From the NCBI GenBank assembly GCA_036630325.1, contig CP142727.1, positions 1-64,000 of the forward strand: 64,000 nucleotides of DNA, read 5' to 3'. Below are positions 2,500 to 60,716 of the stretch, piece by piece. A program made the position numbers and the translations under genes. The DNA comes from Vairimorpha necatrix (lineage: Eukaryota). Position 1 is the stretch's first letter. Each line of letters opens with the position of its first letter. The notes beneath the pieces were generated by a model. It searched no databases. It was not told the origin of the DNA and worked only from the letters and a program-made list of their open reading frames with translations.

Positions 2500-5400
2500 T
2501 GTTATACTTTTTTTTAATAGGGGGTTCAACCCCAAGATCCCCCTCCAGACGTGTAGTCTCACGTTACAAGCTTCTAATTTATAATTTTATAATCTTTTAG
2601 TTTATAATGTCGTTTCTTAATGTATCTTTAGCTATCAGTCCTTACAATATAAGAATCATTTTCGTACTTTTCCATTATTTTACCAACATTTGTGAATCTT
2701 CCTTTCATACTTTTTATCTATTTTCCCAAAATTTTATCTTGCGATTTTCACAGCCTGATCTACTTCAAATTTTTCTCTATGTTTTTGTTTAAACTTACTT
2801 GCATACACACCCTTTTAATTGTTTTCAATTAAGACTTCTTCTCCTTGGTCCTTACATGCTTCCATTGGTGTACATTTTATCGTTGTGTGTAGAGTGTTAT
2901 TATAGGTTCATACAGCTTGTTCTAGTTTTTCTTCTGGGTTTCCTTCTTTTTATTTGATCATTGATTCCCTTATTGTTCAAATACATCGTTCTATTCTTCA
3001 ATTACTCCTATGAGCTTCTAAACCTACTTTCCATTGACTAATTTCGTTTTCTATACACCAAGTTACAAAATTCTTACTAAAAATTCCTTATGTTTTCCGT
3101 AATATATTCATCTAGGTATCTATCTCAAATATCCATTTTATAAAGTTTTAGACTAATTTCACTATCATTATTTTCTATCTTTGCGTCACATATTCTTGTT
3201 CTAAGTAGTCCATCCCAAATAGCACGTATCTTTCTATTTGCCAAATATCCAATACGTTAGAAAGTTTTTTAAATTTCTTAAATATTGTTACTTAATTGCT
3301 ACCTCCCATCGTTTTTCTATTATTAATGCTACATACTTCACAATTTTTTAGTGTTGTGGTTATCTGGTACTTCATACCGGACCAGTACCATCTTTGTTTA
3401 ATCTTATAATGTGTTCCCTTAACTCCTCGATCTATTTAATTCCTCATGAACTCTACGAATTTCTGTCTCTTGTTAGTTCGTTGTGTAGTAGTTTTTTAAT
3501 TTCTCCTGTTGAGAACTTCCATTAGTTTTTGCCTTCTCTTTTAGCTATGCGCTTGTTTTCTTTCCCTTTCATCTGTTTTGGGGCCGTTTCTCTCTTTAGC
3601 GATTTTCAATTTCTTCGTTATTTTCAAATTGTCTACTAAGAGCATCCACATACGTCATCAATTCTCCTTTTACTTATTTAATAGTAAAATCGAACTCTTG
3701 TATATATTCTATCCATCTCTTAATTATAAAATTATTGAAAAACGGGTTGTTTCAAATCTCGGCCAGCCCTTTATGATTTGTCATTTATTAAAATTTGCTT
3801 CGTCCAAAACTGACTCAAATTTCTTTATTCCGAATAACACTGCCTTATCTCTTTTTCACTAATCGTATACCTTTTTTAGGTTGGTGTTATCATTTTTGGT
3901 GCCCAATGTATCGGATTCCACCTTTCTTCTTTGTCTTCTTGCAGAAGTATGGCTCAAATTCCCGTATCGCTTGCATCCGTTCTTACTCTAAATATTTTTT
4001 ACTATCTTCTATTTTTAATTTTAACACATTCTTCAAACCCTCTTTGATATCCATAAAAGCTCTTTCCAAATCTTCGGACTATCCCCACTTAACATCTTTT
4101 TTAGTGCTTCTGTAAGACGTGCTGTCCGTTAAGCATAATTTTGAATAAAATCTCTAAACCAGCCTGCCCGTCCCTCAAATCTTCTAAGATCTTTTATGTT
4201 GTTAGGCCATCTGTATTCTTATGTCTTTTGCTTTTTAATTTTGTTAGGTGTAATGTCTTCTCCGTTAATTGATACTCCAAGTAGTTTTACTTCTCCTTTA
4301 TGTTTTATTTTTTTTTAGGTTTCTTTTAATCCACATTTGTTAAATTTTCGAATTACTTGTTTTAAAAAATTTTCGTGTATATTACTATCTCTTGCATGAA
4401 ATATAATAACATCCATGTACACCTCAACACTCTTGCCTCTAAACTTATCTAAAACTCCGTTCATCACTCTTTGCATAATATGGGGAGCATTTTTAAATCC
4501 CATTACCATGCTATTCCATTCGTAAACTCGAACATTTATCTCAAAGCTTTCTTATGTTTTTGAGCTTTCTCAATTTTATATGATAGAATCCTTCCTAGAG
4601 GTCTATAACTGTAAATACTTTAAAACTTTGCTTTGCCCTAATAATGTCTCTAATTAATGGCAATTCATACGGATCCTTTTTAACCAGTTCATTTAAAGCC
4701 ATCAAATGGCTTCTCAATTGTACTTCACCATTTGGTTTTTCTATGGGCTTTATTAGGCTTCTCCATTCGCTCTTTGTCCTTCTGATAATACCTCTACTTT
4801 CTAATAAATAAATATACTTTTCTAACTTTTCTCGAATTATAAGAAATATTTTGTCTTTTTATATCTACTTTCACTTCTTGTTTTGTTTTGATAGAACATT
4901 TCCCCCCTGTTAAGTATTTATTTACTCTTCGTCTTTTCCTATTACCTCAGGAAATTTTCCTTCTAATTCTTAATATTTATTAATATTTTTTCTTCTTGTA
5001 TCTTGGTTTGTATTTTTTACATAAAAACTGTTTCTTGAGTTCTCTCTCTCTACCTCCACTGTTAGTCTTAATTTAAAATCATTTCCTTTTAATATTTTCA
5101 TTTTACTATTATCATGAATGCCAAAATATTTAACACTTTTATTTTCATTATTCTCTTCCTGTCTTCCTTTACGCTCCATACAACCTCTAGCTATATGTAT
5201 AATACTTCAACATATAAAACAATGTTTTTCTTCTCGTCATTGATATTAAAAGTTTCTTCCTGGCACTGCTACAGTCCTGGTAATTTATCGTTTAATCTTC
5301 TTTTTAATTTTTCTTTCATAATCTCTACCATATCTGAAAGTTCTCTACTCCTTATTTTTTCCTTGTTATGATTCTCTTCTTGTTTACAACCAATTTATCA

Positions 5401-5650
5401 ATAATATCATTCCAATTTATCATACTAATTAAAGTTTTATCATTAATAAAATTTTGAATTTCAGTACTTACTTGTTGCGCCTTTTCGTTGTCACTTCATT
5501 TACATTTTTCTGCATTATGATGATCGTCTCACTCTCTGAGCTTTTTTTAGGAATTTATTGTTCTCTTAAACACGGCTCTCACTTGTTACCCTTTTAGTAT
5601 TTTGTGTTCGCCATGTTATAATTTATTTAATAGGAGGTTCAACTTAAACA
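2500..5650 (-). mobile_element. Degenerate Ty3/gypsy LTR retrotransposon with 37-38 bp LTRs, next to the telomere
   Basis: Diverged direct repeats at 2500-2537 and 5614-5650. PBS-like TGGCGAAC follows the 5' LTR on the minus strand; PPT CGTCTGGAGGGGGA precedes the 3' LTR. Broken gag knuckle CFIC*SIIHIARGC (~5180-5225), RT MVMGFKNAP...VYMDV (4315-4509), RNase H and integrase remnants. Flanks TTATA/TTTTA fit a 5-bp TSD with one mismatch. Confidence 0.88.
4315..4509 (-). pseudogene. Reverse transcriptase fragment of the gypsy element
   Basis: MVMGFKNAPHIMQRVM...VEVYMDVII aligns by eye with MVMGYKNSPQILQRIM...VEVYMDDIV of the 41-44 kb element; the catalytic YMDD has become YMDV. Confidence 0.9.
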
Positions 5651-40600: not shown

Positions 40601-41296
40601 CTCAAGGTATTTATTTTGAAAACAAAAACTTCAGTTATTGTTGCTGTTACATTATTTTTAATATTTTTGTTGTGTTTCTATATTATGATACATCTTTAAT
40701 GCAATTTTTTTGATGTACATTTATTTTGTTTTTTACAAATAAAATTATCATCATCACCTATGAAAGAATTTTTAAAATTTTTTCCTTCTCTTTTTCCTGT
40801 TTGAAAATTTCTAATCTACATACTAAGATCTTATTTTGGAAAAATAATAATCGGGATATAGATTTTATAGTCTTTTCTTGAAATTATAAGTGTGTTTTCT
40901 ATATATATATTGTAAAACTTTTTCATTCTAATTATATTTTTATACTACTTTGATCCAAAATATCGTCAATATCGTTTTTTAAATTTTTATTTACTCTTCA
41001 AAAAAAAAGAAAAAAAATGTTTATAATTCAAAAATTCTCAACGAAGGACAATAATAATTGTATAGAAAGTTTATAAGCACGATTAATTGTGTTTTGAAAA
41101 TAATTTTGGCCCCATATTCAGATCATATGCTACTTAAATGGATTTTTAAAAGGCGAACTTTTTTTATATTCTCTCTTGAGAGAATGAAATTAAAAAAAAA
41201 TAAAGAAGAGTAACAAACTACAAACAAAATATATCGATCCCGCTTTCTAAAAGGGACAAGCGCACGCTTGTAGTTTACAATATTAAAAATATACAA

Positions 41297-44200
41297 TGTT
41301 ATATTCAGAATAATATTAAACCCCAATTATGTTAAGCACTTATATGGGGGCGATACCTAAAGAAGAGTTCACAAGAGAGGACTGTGGCCAAGTGGTCAGA
41401 AAGATGTTACAGGAGTTAGAGCGTATATTGTATGAATTGGATTTGAGAGATGTAGATAGAGTGAAATGGAAGAGTGAGCTGTTCAAGTTGGCTTCGATGG
41501 ATTTAAAAGATTTTATTGTGAGAAATATCAAAAAGGAAGAAAATATTGAAGGAATAAGGAAGAAGCTATTGTTAAGGATTAAGGAAGTAGAGGAAAAAGA
41601 AAAGATATATGAGGAAATGGGAAAAATTATTTCTAGGACTATAAATGAAGAAATTAGTAGAGAACAACCAAGACAAAAATCGAGAGTACCGAGATGCTTC
41701 TATTGTGATAGACAAGGGCATAGGGTGTTTGAATGCAGACTGAAGATTAATAGAGATAATTATTATAAAAAGAATAACAAGGATAACAGTTGCAAAATGG
41801 AAGTAGGTAGTGAATCAGAGTCAAGTCAGGAGCGAGATTTTAGAAGATCAAAAAGAGGACTTAGAGTCAAATTTGAGAAAAATCAAAAAGAATATGCCGT
41901 TAAAGAGGAGAGTAAGAGAATCAGATTAAATTTAGATAAGTATGCTAAGAGTTTTGGAGAGGTTTTTAAGTTAGGAAAAGAGGAGATAAAATATTGTAAA
42001 CTGGAAAAATGTAAAATTAATACTGAAGCGGGTATGAAGGTATTTAAAAAGGGACAAATGGTTCCGCAGGCGTTGATAAAAGATACAGAGCTACATCTAA
42101 AAGATTTATTAAAAAGGAAAGTGATAAGAGAGTCAAATTCAAGTTGGAGGAATCCTATAAGGTCAATCAGAAAGCCAAATGGTGAGATAAGACTGGTTAG
42201 TAATTTGATGGCATTGAACGATATTGTAGAAAAGGACGAGTATAGATTGTCTAACATAAGAGATGTTGTAAGAGCTACACAAGGTGCAAAATATATGACG
42301 GGTTTCGACTTAAAAGAGGCCTTCTATAGTATTGAGATAGAGGAGGAGGATAAACATAAGACGGCGTTTGATTTTAATGGCAAGGTTTATGAATGGAACT
42401 CTATGGTTATGGGATATAAGAATAGCCCGCAGATATTGCAGAGAATTATGGATAGGATTTTTAGAGATATGAAAGGCAAAGGAGTAGAGGTGTATATGGA
42501 CGATATTGTGTTGTACAGCCGAACGATAGGAGAACACGAGCAATTAGTGAAAAGGGTATTAAATAGACTGAAGGAAAACAATTTGAAGCTGAATGCAAAT
42601 AAAGTTCAGTTTTGTCAACGGGAAGTTAAATTATTGGGAGTCACTTTAAATGGAGAAGATATAATACCGTCAGAGATAAAGAAAAATGAAGCCCTAGAGT
42701 TTCCGATACCAACATGCGTGTCAGATGTAAGAAGATTTTTAGGAATGACGGGTTGGTTCAGAGATTTTATTAAGAATTACGCTGGATTGACAGTTAGGTT
42801 GACAGATAGTTTAAAAGGGAAGAATGATAATTGGAAGTGGACGGATGATATGAAAAACGAGTTTAATAATTTAAAAGAAGTATTTAAAGGCCTAGGAAAG
42901 CTGCAAATAGCAGACTATGATAAAGAATTTTTGTTGAGGACTGACGCTAGTAATGTAGGCATGGGCGCAGTACTGTTACAGAAAAATAATCAAGGAGAAT
43001 GGGTGCCGGTACAGTGGGCGTCTAAGAAGTTTACCGTTACGGAAGTTAATTATGGTATATCAGAAAAAGAAATGTACGCAGTTTTTTGGGGCGTTAAAAA
43101 GTTTGAATATGAATTAAGAGGTAAGAAATTTAGAATAGAAACTGATCATAAAACGTTGGGCGAAATAAGAAACAAGCCCGACTTTAAGAATGCTAGAATT
43201 AATAGATGGGCCGAGAAGATTCAGGAATTTGATTTCGTGATAGAATATAGAACTCCAGAAAATATGGTCGTAGCCGATGCGCTAAGTAGGATATATACAA
43301 AAGAAAAAGATGCAAAGAAAAAGAGAAATGAAACACGCCGTGATAGACAAAAAGAAGGGAAAAGAAATAAGCATGTAAAAATTGTAGAAGGCAAAGAATA
43401 CTGGGTATTTGATAGTGGTAGAGAAGGCGAGATGCCTTTGGAACAAGACAGAGAGAGATTAATAATGGATTGTCATTTAAATTTGAGCCACAGAAGCAGA
43501 ACAACGGTATATTATGAGTTGAGGAAACAGTATTATTGGCCAGGAATTAAGGATCAGATCGAAAAGGTCCTTAAGAATTGCGAGACTTGTCAGATTTTTA
43601 ATAAAAAAACGAGTGGCGGTACTGATTTAGTGAACACGACAAGATATTTAGAGAAGGTTGGCTTAGATTTAATAGAATTTAGGGAAGAGAAAGCGTTTAT
43701 TGTTTGAGCAGTTAATTACTTTACAAGGAGATTATGGGAGAGTATTGAAGAGCAAGCACGCATTTGGAATTGCCGAATTTATTAAGGATTTGTGTAAACA
43801 AGGCAGAAAACCAGAGGAAATTATTACGGATAATGGTAAAGAGTTTTGCAACGAAAAAGTTACCGAGCTATGTAGAAATTTGGATATTAGCTATAGAAAG
43901 GTCAGCGTTGAGTCGCACAGAAGTAATGGAAGAGTAGAAAAAGTTATTAGAACTGCAAGAGATAGTATTTTAAAGAGCCAAAAAGAAAAATTCGAGAACA
44001 AGGTTTATGAAGCTATTGAGAAATATAATTTAAGTTGTCATGCTGGTATTAAGTGCACGCCAGTAGAAGCTTTAACCGATTATACAGGAAATGTTAGTAT
44101 GGAGAATAGTCCAGAGGGAAAGTATGCGCAACAGTTTAAAAGTTGGTTTAGAGAAAAGTTCAAAAGGAGCCAGATAGTTAGGGTTGCCAAGAATGAGAAT

Positions 44201-44436
44201 TTAAAGGGATGTAGTAAGTATAGTAAGGGTCGATTTTTAGACATGGGAAGAGTGATTGAGCTATGTTTAGGGGATTCATATATAGTGAGATTAGAGAATG
44301 GAAGGTTGGTGAAAAAAAGGCATTATGATCTTAAGGGTGTAGGGGATTTAAAGTATGTTGAAGGAGACTAACCGTCTGGAGGGGGGATGTTATAATCAGT
44401 AATAATATTAAACCCCAATTATGTTAAGCACTTATA
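41297..44436 (+). mobile_element. Near-complete compact Ty3/gypsy LTR retrotransposon (3140 bp) with 48/49-bp LTRs
   Basis: LTRs at 41297-41344 and 44388-44436 differ by one substitution and one indel. Exact TSD TACAA at 41292-41296 and 44437-44441. PBS-like TGGGGGCG at 41345; PPT GGAGGGGGGA ending 44387. Domain order Gag-RT-RH-IN. Confidence 0.96.
41329..44371 (+). pseudogene. Gag-Pol polyprotein, disrupted in the integrase
   Basis: CFYCDRQGHRVFEC knuckle, RT (FDLKEAFY, YMDD), RNase H (TDAS, EKEMYA, TDHK, ADALSR), integrase HHCC and TDNGKEF. In-frame TGA at 43705-43707 (AFIV*AVNYFTRRLW), then a frameshift near 43738 into ORF 43700-44371. Confidence 0.93.
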
Positions 44437-45364
44437 TACAATACAAAAACAAATATTTGATTTTGCAAAATAACATTTTTTAGTTTGTACAGGTGTATTG
44501 TTAAACCGATTGAAAATTCGAACTAAAGCTTATTTAAACTTCATCTTGTATAATTAATTCATTTATTCTATAAATAGATCTCTATAACACAATATATACA
44601 CCCTTTTGTTTTAAAAGTCTTATGTAGTCTTAAAAATAATGGTTTGTCGGTTTTAAAGCTTACCTAAATACCATAAAACGAAACTTTATATAAATTTTGT
44701 TCTTTTATTACTCTGTCAAGAATCCTGAAATAAAGAGTGATGTATTTTTTTTCTATTCAATTGATTTGAAATCTTAAGCCCTACTTAGCATGTTTATATT
44801 AATATAACCCATGTTAAAAAATCTTATATTTACTTATAACGTGTCAAATATGAAATAAAAATTATGAATAATCTAAAGTTTTAATCTTACAGAATACTAT
44901 TTGCTTTTTTCATATATATGGCCAATATTTGAAATTTATTATTAAATAATTTTTATTTATTTAGTGGGCCTCGTAAAGCTCGATCATATTCTTTTAACTA
45001 ATTTAATGAGTTCCGTTTAATAAACAAATTATATGAAGAACGATTAGACATATTATAATTAAGAGTCTAACAAAAAAAGAACTCTCACTGAATAAAGACA
45101 TAATTTAATAACAAGGATTTTAGATTTATGTTATTGATATTATGCATTTATGACTAGAAAGACAACGATTATTATAAACAAAACATAATCCTAATCAATT
45201 TAGCTTATTTTCAAATAATATTATGATCAAAAATGTAAAGTTGTTTAAAGTTAGACCAGTCAAAAATTTACAACTTATGCCTGTTTGATGTTTTTGTATT
45301 CTTCCTTATATTTAATTAACCTTTTTGTTGCTTACTTAAAAAATCGAAGTTTTTTGATTATTAA

Positions 45365-56743: not shown

Positions 56744-58015
56744 ATGCAAGACATTGAGTATTCTCTTAAATACACTCTAGACAGTGTTTTACTTAAGCTC
56801 GAAGATGTCAAAGATGTGTCTGTTCCCAATGAAATCATTTCTTTTAGAAAAAAGTTTGGCGATTTAAAAACTTTGAAACTCTACACTAAAGACGGTAAGA
56901 TCTTCCCGTTGTTCAATGTTCCATTGTCTAATGGAATAAAACACACAGTTGAGTATTGTGAAGTTGCTGTCGGCGAGTCTCTGTTTGTTACCAAAGAATA
57001 TTCCAGGACTCTTAACCCACCAGATAAATATTCAAGTTTTATTATTAATGAGAAGTCTGATCAATTTGATTTATTATTAAATGATGATAATATTAATATA
57101 AGAGATTTCAGTTTTATTATTAAAGATAGTTCTAGAGTTTTACCTTTATATTCTATTACTTTTGAATATGACGAGGAATTAGAGCGCAAATCTAAAGGAG
57201 TGATTGTTTGCGAGAGATGCCGATCTAAACAGTCGATTTCTTTTTGCCCGTCGGAGCGGGCGAATTTCTGCGAGCAATGCGACGAAGAAGTCCATTGCGA
57301 TGAATTCCATAAGAGACATGACAGGTATTATTTCAATCAAGGAGGTAAAAGAAGATTTATTTATTGTTGTATTCATTCTGATACACTTGTTGAGTATTTC
57401 TGTATGATTTGTATGATTCCCATTTGTACTAAATGTAAAATTAATGGTAATCATTCTGAATTACCCAATAGTTCTCATGGTTTAGTAGGTTATTTAGAAG
57501 TATGCGATATTTTAAAGAATGAAGTTAAAATGTCCAATGACCAGTTGAATCCCGTGTTAGAACATTTAGTTTCTACTATTGAAGATTTTAAGAATACTTG
57601 CTCAGATTTCCAAATTAATATAAAAGATATTAGACAGAAGATTGAGGATGAATATAAAGCGATAATGAATGAGATAGATTTATATGAGAATACTCAGTAT
57701 CAGAATATAAATGCGCATTATATTAAGAGTATTAGTAAATTGGAGAATTTAGAAAGAATGAAAAATTACGCGATTTCTTTAGAGCCTTCACTTTTAGTGA
57801 AGAATTTCAGGAGTGTAGTTCAACAAAGAAATGAACTTGATGTTACAAATGACATAAATTTCGTACCTAAGAAAGTTGAATTAAAAGGGAAATTGAGTTT
57901 AGGAGATCCAGTGAGTTTGACGCCTAGGACGACGCAGTCTCCTAGGATGGACAAGACGACGAAGATGTATGTTGAGACTCGAGGGAAAGTTTACAACAAA
58001 ACTGATAATTATTAA
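56744..58015 (+). CDS. B-box zinc finger plus coiled-coil protein
   Basis: CERC...FCPSERANFCEQCDEEVH...HKR (B-box type 1) and CCIH...YFCMICMIPICTKC...H (B-box type 2), then a helical region; CCCC motif before the ATG. Confidence 0.9.
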   Translation: MQDIEYSLKYTLDSVLLKLEDVKDVSVPNEIISFRKKFGDLKTLKLYTKDGKIFPLFNVPLSNGIKHTVEYCEVAVGESLFVTKEYSRTLNPPDKYSSFIINEKSDQFDLLLNDDNINIRDFSFIIKDSSRVLPLYSITFEYDEELERKSKGVIVCERCRSKQSISFCPSERANFCEQCDEEVHCDEFHKRHDRYYFNQGGKRRFIYCCIHSDTLVEYFCMICMIPICTKCKINGNHSELPNSSHGLVGYLEVCDILKNEVKMSNDQLNPVLEHLVSTIEDFKNTCSDFQINIKDIRQKIEDEYKAIMNEIDLYENTQYQNINAHYIKSISKLENLERMKNYAISLEPSLLVKNFRSVVQQRNELDVTNDINFVPKKVELKGKLSLGDPVSLTPRTTQSPRMDKTTKMYVETRGKVYNKTDNY

Positions 58016-60180: not shown

Positions 60181-60716
60181 ATGTTCACGGTTCTTTTCTC
60201 GGATGATGATAAAGAAGATATTTTGGAAAATATCTTCACTAATAATAAAATTATTAATACTCCAAATTACAAGGAAATAAGGACAAATTACCAGAGAGCC
60301 CTGCTCCACTTAAAAAGTGGCATATTTTATGACTTCTTTAAGCACAGGAGACAACTTGATAAATTTACTAAATTCAGAATAATAAACAAGAAGATAAAGA
60401 AATAAGTCAAGAGAAAGTTATCATACAAGTAGACTGTAGTATTAAACAAGGGAATCAGAAGTATGAGATAGAAGAAATAAGTCAAGAGAAAGTTATCATA
60501 CAAGTAGACTGTAGTATCAAACAAGGGAATCAGAAGTATGAGATAGAAGATTGTACAGTGAAAGAAGCCAAGAAATATATATATGAGAAATTAGGAATAA
60601 GTATAAGTAAGCAGGAGATAGTAAAAGAAGAAGAAGTATTAAATAATGGGAGATATTTAAAGAATGAGACAGTCATTGTAAGACAAAAGAGGAGAACAAA
60701 CAAGACAAAGCATTAA
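60181..60716 (+). CDS. Hypothetical protein with C-terminal ubiquitin-like domain; frameshifted, with internal duplication
   Basis: CCCC-TTAA-ATG start. After a 1-nt shift near 60396 a second frame is open to TAA 60716 and reads ...EDCTVKEAKKYIYEKLGISISKQEIV...VLNNGRYL..., which resembles the ubiquitin-fold pattern TV.ELK..I....GI....Q.L. Confidence 0.65.
60397..60546 (+). repeat. Tandem duplication, 2 x 75 bp
   Basis: 60397-60471 and 60472-60546 are identical except for one T/C difference. Confidence 0.95.

Follow-up and report, generated by a model that had tools for sequence, protein, structure and literature searches.

This study examined positions 1 to 64,000 (forward strand) of contig CP142727.1 in the assembly GCA_036630325.1 of Vairimorpha necatrix, a 64,000-nucleotide stretch referred to here as the window, and in particular a long terminal repeat (LTR) retrotransposon within it, designated element 1. 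We confirmed that element 1 is a real LTR retrotransposon with LTRs of 48 and 49 bp. It is very probably a dead copy of a multi-copy, compact Ty3/gypsy family in which the LTR is a complete miniature of the U3-R-U5 arrangement (unique 3', repeated and unique 5' regions). Beyond the two copies of the window, our data support a design that extends over a whole clade, whose elements are about 3.1 kb long and protease-less, with LTRs of 37-49 bp and a coding region overlapping the cis signals.

The borders of element 1 are fixed from both sides. Its repeats cannot extend either way, because the primer-binding site (PBS) and the polypurine tract (PPT) adjoin them on the inside and the target-site duplication (TSD) adjoins them on the outside (Table 1). 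The initial annotation had described a 3140-bp element with an exact TACAA duplication, in which the PBS and PPT left room only for LTRs of 48 and 49 bp, and all of these coordinates and lengths were borne out. Aligned with each other, the two LTRs show a single substitution and a single 1-nt indel, and an exact 37-nt repeat is shared by 41309-41345 and 44401-44437. The 27-nt core of the LTR was found in the window only at the two LTRs of element 1 (expected 0.00), and the 14-nt PPT word, with up to two mismatches allowed, occurred twice in the 64 kb where shuffles expect 0.01, both occurrences being the 3' ends of element 1 and of a second element described below. The PPT of element 1 reads CGTCTGGAGGGGGG(A), and its 5' LTR contains an AT-rich AATAATATTAAA block and a CCCC run 8 nt ahead of the ATG at 41329.

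Table 1. Coordinates of elements 1 and 2 and of their parts in the window (RT, reverse transcriptase; ORF, open reading frame; aa, amino acids)
Feature	Position	Strand	Basis or remark
Element 1, LTR retrotransposon	41297-44436	+	3140 bp
5' TSD TACAA	41292-41296	+	Same 5-mer at 44437-44441
5' LTR, 48 bp	41297-41344	+	Repeat comparison; first letters TGTT, last letters TA
PBS by position, TGGGGGCGATACC	41345-41357	+	First base is the first base past the 5' LTR; inside gag frame
Open frame, 792 aa	41329-43707	+	ORF; ends with in-frame TGA 43705-43707
CCHC knuckle	41695-41736	+	In the 792-aa frame, after the gag helical domain
Disordered linker	Between CCHC knuckle and RT of the 792-aa frame	+	
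RT	42166-42648	+	RVT_1, E = 1.9e-36
RNase H	42838-43230	+	RT_RNaseH, E = 2e-32
Integrase zinc finger	43444-43605	+	Integrase_H2C2, E = 3.2e-14
Two lesions: in-frame stop and frameshift near 43738	43705-43740	+	
Remaining integrase (core from the DNG...E part, C-terminal domain), +1 frame	43700-44371	+	rve, E = 1.1e-4
PPT CGTCTGGAGGGGGGA, with GAGACTAAC ahead of it	44373-44387	+	Last base adjoins the 3' LTR
3' LTR, 49 bp	44388-44436	+	Repeat comparison and loose ends of other copies
3' TSD TACAA	44437-44441	+	Same 5-mer at 41292-41296
Element 2	2500-5650	-	3151 bp
5' LTR, 37 bp (TGTTTAAG...TATAACA)	5614-5650	-	Repeat comparison
PBS by position, TGGCGAACACAAA	5601-5613	-	Follows the 5' LTR; TGG type
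Decayed gag-RT-RNase H-integrase region, many stops and shifts	2577-5221	-	tblastn
PPT CGTCTGGAGGGGGA	2538-2551	-	Exactly the PPT word of element 1
3' LTR, 38 bp (TCTTGGGG...TATAACA)	2500-2537	-	First TG mutated to TC

Coding sequence occupies 41329-44371, which amounts to 3043 of the 3140 bp (97%), and the PPT begins one base past the TAA (44369-44371) that closes the integrase remainder. The Pfam domains RVT_1, RT_RNaseH, Integrase_H2C2 and rve follow one another in the gypsy order, in agreement with the original assignment to Ty3/gypsy. The first in-frame ATG (41329) lies inside the 5' LTR and the second spans the junction between LTR and PBS, with its A at 41344 and its TG at 41345-41346; since in the clade gag starts either in the LTR or on the LTR/PBS junction (CA/TGG), the PBS is read as codons 2-5. 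Element 1 is a dead copy, as its integrase carries a nonsense mutation and a frameshift, the latter placed between the first and second catalytic aspartates. The integrase remainder is 70% identical to residues 805-1014 of protein P0001 in a tblastn comparison.

For a view of other copies, contigs of two DNA sequencing runs (X1 and X2) containing element 1 were compared with the reference. The family of element 1 is multi-copy, and the other copies read open at the lesion sites: the X1/X2 contigs differ from the window at 43706-43707 and contain two additional letters after 43738, so the lesions are private to the window copy and the family frame is open there. Word depth in X1 was 34-56 within element 1 and 2.7-4.0 in the flank, a roughly tenfold excess that was higher still in X2, word depth being a rough measure and not a copy number. 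The contigs of other copies diverge exactly at 41297/44388 and 44436/44437 and have unrelated flanks. One of them passes from an unrelated flank into TGTTATATTCAGT, one has a poly-T flank that ends at 44388, and one enters an unrelated flank after 44437. In X2 the flank directly upstream of TGTT differs in another copy (loose end at 41309), and in X1 the LTR forms a 60-nt unitig of its own, in which the 49-bp LTR is preceded by a single base and followed by the initial 10 nt of the PBS. Comparing the flanks of other copies had been proposed with the initial annotation, together with the expectation that copies with much longer LTRs would expose the short ones as deletion products; the contigs depart at the LTR edges, and the LTRs of the X1/X2 copies and of the compact relatives are no longer than those of the window. 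The start of one X1 contig at 41325 was considered as a transcript start and rejected, as it overlaps the LTR unitig by 30 nt (k-1) and marks a break in the assembly graph.

Element 2 lies on the minus strand and is similar in size to element 1; its extent, its shared PPT word and its LTRs of 37 and 38 bp agree with the earlier description. Its LTRs match in 30 of 38 aligned columns and its flanks, TAAAA and TATAA, in four of five positions, while the PBS past the 5' LTR reads TGGCGAACAC. The coding remains consist of six pieces with 33-58% identity to residues 122-1011 of P0001 (tblastn). The element is situated only 160 bp inside of the telomere repeat.

The same anatomy was recognized in relatives from other sources. 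The metagenome contig L003 holds a relative that is complete, though decayed, and 3163 bp long, with 39/39-bp LTRs of the TG..CA type that differ by one mismatch, a TTATA duplication, the PBS TGGCACCCAGTC and a PPT ending in ...GGCGGGGA. In L007 a 47-bp 5' LTR is followed by a TGG PBS, and in L146, of the same subfamily, the PPT is followed by a 46-bp 3' LTR and then by unrelated flank. L005 has its PPT ahead of a 38-bp LTR closely resembling that of element 2, and L004 has its PPT ahead of a probable 49-bp LTR whose end is inferred. Among the ten aligned LTR ends, nine start with TGTT (TCTT in element 2) and eight end with ACA, both LTRs of element 1 being the exceptions; all ten contain an AATAAA-like, AT-rich block and a C-run, which is only CC in L007. 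TGG stands directly past the 5' LTR in all four compact-clade 5' LTRs, and also in L131 and L141, two longer relatives treated below.

At the 3' end, a G-rich tract ending in A directly precedes TGTT (TCTT in element 2) in all six ends available, and the motif (G)GACT-N-CGTCT..GGGGA/TGTT is likewise found in six of six, again with TCTT in element 2; the slash marks the LTR edge. The clade-wide consensus is GAGACT-N(2-4)-CGTCT..GGGGA/TGTT. Just ahead of the G-run of the PPT, GAGACT-N(2-4)-CGTCT was located at 44362-44387 of the window, 3643-3663 of L003 and 3198-3221 of L004, with further sites at 2701-2723 of L005 and 1532-1552 of L146. Subfamilies with a protein identity of only 45-50% all retain this motif, in different frames or untranslated. 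Several C-termini in our protein alignment (A1, 21 members) translate the PPT as ETxRLEGG or RLPSGGGDV, which are two different frames, and therefore the conservation is at the nucleotide level.

Two structural explanations of these signals were tried. A hairpin AGAC..GUCU ahead of the PPT is unsupported, since the six 3' ends fold at z-scores of +1.0 to -2.9 and element 1 has a different minimum-energy fold; the motif is conserved as sequence only. Self-priming of the Tf1 kind was also rejected, as inspection by eye showed no more than a 5-nt CCCCA/TGGGG complement in element 1 and none in L003 or L007. When GAGACT-N(2-4)-CGTCTGGAGG was scanned in genome contigs, at least 120 loci were returned and none among the matches listed encodes the family, the motif being too weak a pattern for 596 Gb of genome contigs. 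Among viral contigs no relatives were found.

With reference to the proteins, 111 homologues were obtained, the best 48 of which show 41-71% identity and originate from Nosema granulosis, Vairimorpha necatrix, V. apis, Enteropsectra breve, unnamed assemblies and two mislabelled bacterial metagenome-assembled genomes (MAGs). All named matches above 40% identity are microsporidian or lie on contigs of the mislabelled MAGs. The complete homologues measure 976-1052 aa, apart from one of 1188 aa with a low-complexity expansion, and 13 full-length homologues (976-1019 aa) are carried by contigs of 3036-3192 bp, which is the size of a whole element. The two MAGs, G001 and G002, are GTDB species representatives labelled Clostridium sp. 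and Turicibacter sp. and gave 51 and 16 family matches, respectively, mostly on contigs of 2-4.5 kb and including L005/L129 and L131-L155. These are repeat contigs of a microsporidian or other eukaryote binned into bacterial genomes, and contigs of the compact family thus end up in bacterial MAGs.

The family is encoded as a single gag-pol polyprotein frame throughout A1. In most of its members, 19 of 21 by our reading, the N-terminus shows an M and then A or G, the CA/TGG junction expressed as codons. The knuckle residues C123, C126, H131 and C136 are invariant and zf-CCHC was scored in 17 of 21, while the order RT, RNase H, integrase with RT_RNaseH and Integrase_H2C2 was observed in all 21. 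Ahead of the knuckle, a gag part of about 95 aa (residues 18-112) is predicted to form four helices at a per-residue model confidence (pLDDT) of 75-86. An AlphaFold2 model of the window protein on A1 has a mean pLDDT of 76, a confident RT, and values below 50 at 148-174 and 177-199.

Judged from these sequences, the compact polyprotein is gag(CCHC)-RT-RNase H-integrase without a protease. No aspartic-protease Pfam family appears in the precomputed annotation of the best 48 of the 111 homologues. In the 21 A1 members searched at E <= 1, the 25 most frequent of 49 families include no protease family other than Peptidase_A17, which was matched in two members with a best E of 0.056. The interval between the knuckle and the first conserved block ahead of the RT spans 51-100 poorly conserved residues, and a D[TS]G triplet occurs there in one of 21 members, inside a low-complexity serine-rich run. 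Six longer relatives of the same bins served as a positive control: five match gag-asp_proteas or Asp_protease_2, and LLDTGA is present in the remaining one, L131. The initial annotation was right about the anatomy and overlooked the missing protease, the broken state of the copy and the spread of the design across microsporidian genera.

In the phylogenetic trees, the proteins of about 1000 aa, which come from Nosema, Vairimorpha and Enteropsectra, all group together (29 rows) with a support of 100 in the Shimodaira-Hasegawa-like approximate likelihood ratio test (SH-aLRT), and this clade joins Nematocida polyproteins of about 1300 aa and L131, also with an SH-aLRT of 100. Because of the missing protease and this position in the tree, we class the family as a derived protease-less lineage nested in Ty3/gypsy and not as a canonical member. 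The nearest outgroups, namely the Nematocida polyproteins P0051 and P0055, L131 and L141, differ from the compact clade in having kept a retropepsin (by Pfam match in L141 and P0051, by LLDTGA in L131) and in being 80-300 aa longer. L131 and L141 resemble it in their TGT..ACA ends, their start codon on CA/TGG and their LTRs below 100 bp.

Among the elements with readable ends, LTR length drops together with protein length: L133 (1309 aa, with protease) has LTRs of about 285 bp, L141 (1154 aa, with protease) an exact pair of 75 bp, L131 (1095 aa, with protease) an exact pair of 58 bp, and the compact clade (about 1000 aa, no protease) LTRs of 37-49 bp. The start codon stands on the CA/TGG junction in L131, L133 and L141 as well. 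LTRs below 100 bp and a PBS within the ORF are thus a wider habit of presumably microsporidian gypsy lineages, of which the compact clade is the extreme. No TSD was seen in L131 and L141. Past the 3' LTR of L141 (262-336, minus strand) the flank translates as ...YNNSYYVGIKCTPAES..., part of the integrase of another gypsy element; L141 is a nested insertion, and the L131 and L141 contigs are nested or chimeric.

How such small LTRs could work is suggested by the host. In Nosema ceranae, according to the available part of the source (PMC2685015), CCC is strongly over-represented between -10 and -3 relative to the start codon, and TATA-like motifs have their maximum near -27. Counted from the ATG at 41329, element 1 has its CCCC run starting at -8 and its AT block at -20 to -9; TTTTTACCCATG stands in L004 and GAACCCATG in L146. 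The order of signals along the LTR would be the integrase end TGTT, the AATAAA/TATA-like AT block, the C-run, the ATG and the end ACA. Because these signals resemble the start context of N. ceranae, we propose that in the 5' LTR transcription may begin downstream of the AT block and ahead of the ATG, which would give an R-U5 of roughly 15-25 nt. The AT block would then belong to U3, be transcribed only from the 3' LTR and act as a poly(A) signal near the LTR end; alternatively, transcripts might run into the flank, and strong-stop DNA could still anneal to the internal R-U5. Priming by a tRNA at TGG would produce a strong-stop DNA of about 20 nt that makes the first jump through a tiny R, after which the PPT would prime the plus strand, the second jump would pass through the PBS, and integration would create the 5-bp duplication. 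Gag-Pol might function as an unprocessed fusion, or a protease of the host or of a co-resident element might process it. In retroviruses, R regions about a dozen nucleotides long are known to suffice.

Several observations weigh against this account. The division into U3, R and U5, the transcription start, the poly(A) site and R itself are positions that we infer from the letters, and an exact TATA[AT]A[AT] at -27 was not found. In LTRs of 37-39 bp the C-run lies 15-24 nt ahead of the ATG, outside the -10 to -3 zone, and precedes the AT block, so that the signal layout is not uniform and the promoter model is less secure for these. Both LTRs of element 1 end in ATA (TA), without the canonical CA. 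PBS words differ among subfamilies, and no tRNA partner was matched for any of them, the 64-kb window containing no tRNA. In addition to the roughness of word depth mentioned above, the window may have been assembled from the sample of X1 or X2, so that these runs show other copies and not an independent organism, and the trees are quick maximum-likelihood searches (LG+G4, SH-aLRT) that raised composition warnings.

Taken at its strongest, the compact clade might be the smallest self-sufficient LTR retrotransposon design known, about 3.1 kb long and 97% coding, with an unprocessed Gag-Pol, no protease, LTRs below 50 bp, a single AT block serving as promoter and poly(A) signal, and an R of about 10-20 nt; we put this forward tentatively, at rather less than even chances. 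Somewhat less probable, and in our view unlikely, is that the family is non-autonomous, having lost the protease and most of gag, and is mobilised by protease-bearing gypsy families of the same genome. Candidate partners are L141 (75-bp LTRs) and L131 (58-bp LTRs), which carry a protease, have the same end design and share an assembly bin with compact contigs, and non-autonomous elements that use partner proteins, such as terminal-repeat retrotransposons in miniature (TRIMs) and large retrotransposon derivatives (LARDs), are well known according to the available part of the source (PMC3532108). However, long open gag-RT-RNase H-integrase frames are kept across several genera, which argues for selection on the family's own proteins. 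One bin is also not one genome, so that co-residence with L131 and L141 is not established by it. Proteases of diverged families, moreover, rarely cut foreign polyproteins.

A quite improbable alternative is that transcription is not driven by the LTR at all: a promoter within gag would direct upstream initiation, or neighbouring transcription would read through, and the AT block and C-run would be integrase or packaging signals. In its favour, any plausible start site has only about 20-30 bp of LTR ahead of it, an exact TATA motif is missing and the C-run spacing varies among subfamilies. Against it, initiation outside the LTR would yield a strong-stop DNA unable to transfer correctly, the C-run with the ATG after it mirrors the host start context, and the motif order was counted as kept in all ten aligned LTR ends, though the layout of C-run and AT block varies in the 37-39-bp LTRs. 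That both window elements are internally deleted or LTR-truncated forms of ordinary long-LTR elements is scarcely credible: element 1 is indeed damaged by a stop and a frameshift and LTRs are longer in related lineages (L133, about 285 bp), but the PBS and PPT adjoin the repeats inside and the TSD outside, the other copies in X1/X2 end at the same bases, five further LTR ends from four other subfamilies measure 38-47 bp, and full-length proteins sit on contigs of about 3.1 kb, so the short LTRs are not deletion products, given the shared edges of the other copies and the 39/39, 46/47 and 38 bp of the relatives.

Compared with known systems, the family is closest to the microsporidian Ty3/gypsy elements, with which it shares the host phylum, the RT lineage and the gag-pol fusion. 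These have reportedly been known since the work of Xu and colleagues in 2006 on Nosema bombycis (Nbr1-8), and they include the microsporidia-specific groups of Parisot. The available part of Parisot et al. 2014 (PMC4202319) describes gag and pol fused in a single polyprotein frame in microsporidian elements. According to the part of Gill et al. 2008 at hand (PMC2474625), nearly all Nbr elements have Gag, protease, RT, RNase H and integrase, and the compact family differs from them in the absence of the protease. LTRs are given in the accessible part of another source (PMC3532108) as about 100 bp and upward to several kb. TRIMs are likewise very small LTR elements in which short terminal repeats are combined with a PBS and a PPT; they have no coding capacity and depend on partners, whereas the compact family encodes gag, RT, RNase H and integrase and has LTRs half of about 100 bp. 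As it encodes RT, RNase H and integrase, the family falls outside TRIM and LARD.

Two further elements invite comparison. Mag of Bombyx mori, a Ty3/gypsy element of about 5 kb with a protease, has LTRs of about 77 bp, the shortest otherwise known to us; it is similar in its unusually short LTRs, and the compact clade goes further with 37-49 bp and no protease. In Ty1 of Saccharomyces cerevisiae the start codon of gag is situated within the 5' LTR and the gag frame includes the PBS. Ty1 therefore resembles the compact clade in coding sequence that overlaps cis signals, and differs in type (copia), size (about 5.9 kb), LTRs (about 330 bp), its protease and its gag/pol frameshift.

In the full-text literature we found no report, for microsporidia or any other organisms, of LTRs below 50 bp or of a gypsy clade that lacks a protease, a search whose scope was the full texts and not supplements, Repbase or the 2006 Nosema bombycis paper; the main texts searched on microsporidian Ty3/gypsy elements stated neither how long the LTRs are nor that a protease had been lost. 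This negative is not a proof of novelty, and the elements may figure among published consensus sequences. Our data challenge two textbook views, that LTRs range from about 100 bp to several kb and that a protease is obligatory in autonomous LTR elements. The family offers a natural minimal system for asking how short R, U3 and U5 can be, whether processing is dispensable and how the ultra-compact start signals of a host are adopted. If the minimal design is truly self-sufficient, it would define the practical minimum for LTR retrotransposition and would explain the under-reporting by standard finders in microsporidian genomes. The default of about 100 bp ascribed to common finders was verified for LTRharvest, for which Table 1 of the source (PMC2253517), the part available, gives a minimum LTR of 100 bp and a seed of 30. 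Such settings miss these elements, and the transposable element content and intact-LTR counts of microsporidian genomes are therefore likely underestimated.

The host is a microsporidian of the Nosema/Vairimorpha clade. The window begins with about 2.3 kb (1-2339) of telomere-type (CCTAA/CCTA)n repeat, TTAGG/TAGG on the other strand, past which the G+C content is 21-32%. With 10 ATG-initiated ORFs of at least 150 aa, it represents the end of a chromosome, poor in genes and rich in repeats, on a contig of 1.49 Mb. The idea that the LTRs were compressed in a reduced genome consequently fits loosely only, for the start signals are compact in the style of the host and the locus itself is gene-poor and rich in repeats. 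Other, more distant retroelement fragments are present within 19901-22413, comprising an ORF with an rve domain (19901-20467, minus strand, E = 1.8e-14) and RNase H-like and integrase-like pieces at 21509-21739 and 22231-22413 (plus strand). The farnesyl-diphosphate synthase of the window is 76% and 70% identical to two V. necatrix copies, P0113 and P0114, which lie on different large contigs; the same search showed one such gene in the window genome. Several ORFs of 216-572 aa are without a Pfam match, and one of 423 aa (56744-58015) has a B-box zinc finger (E = 1.2e-7). A 75-nt tandem repeat with 2.1 copies and 97% matches occupies 60392-60550.

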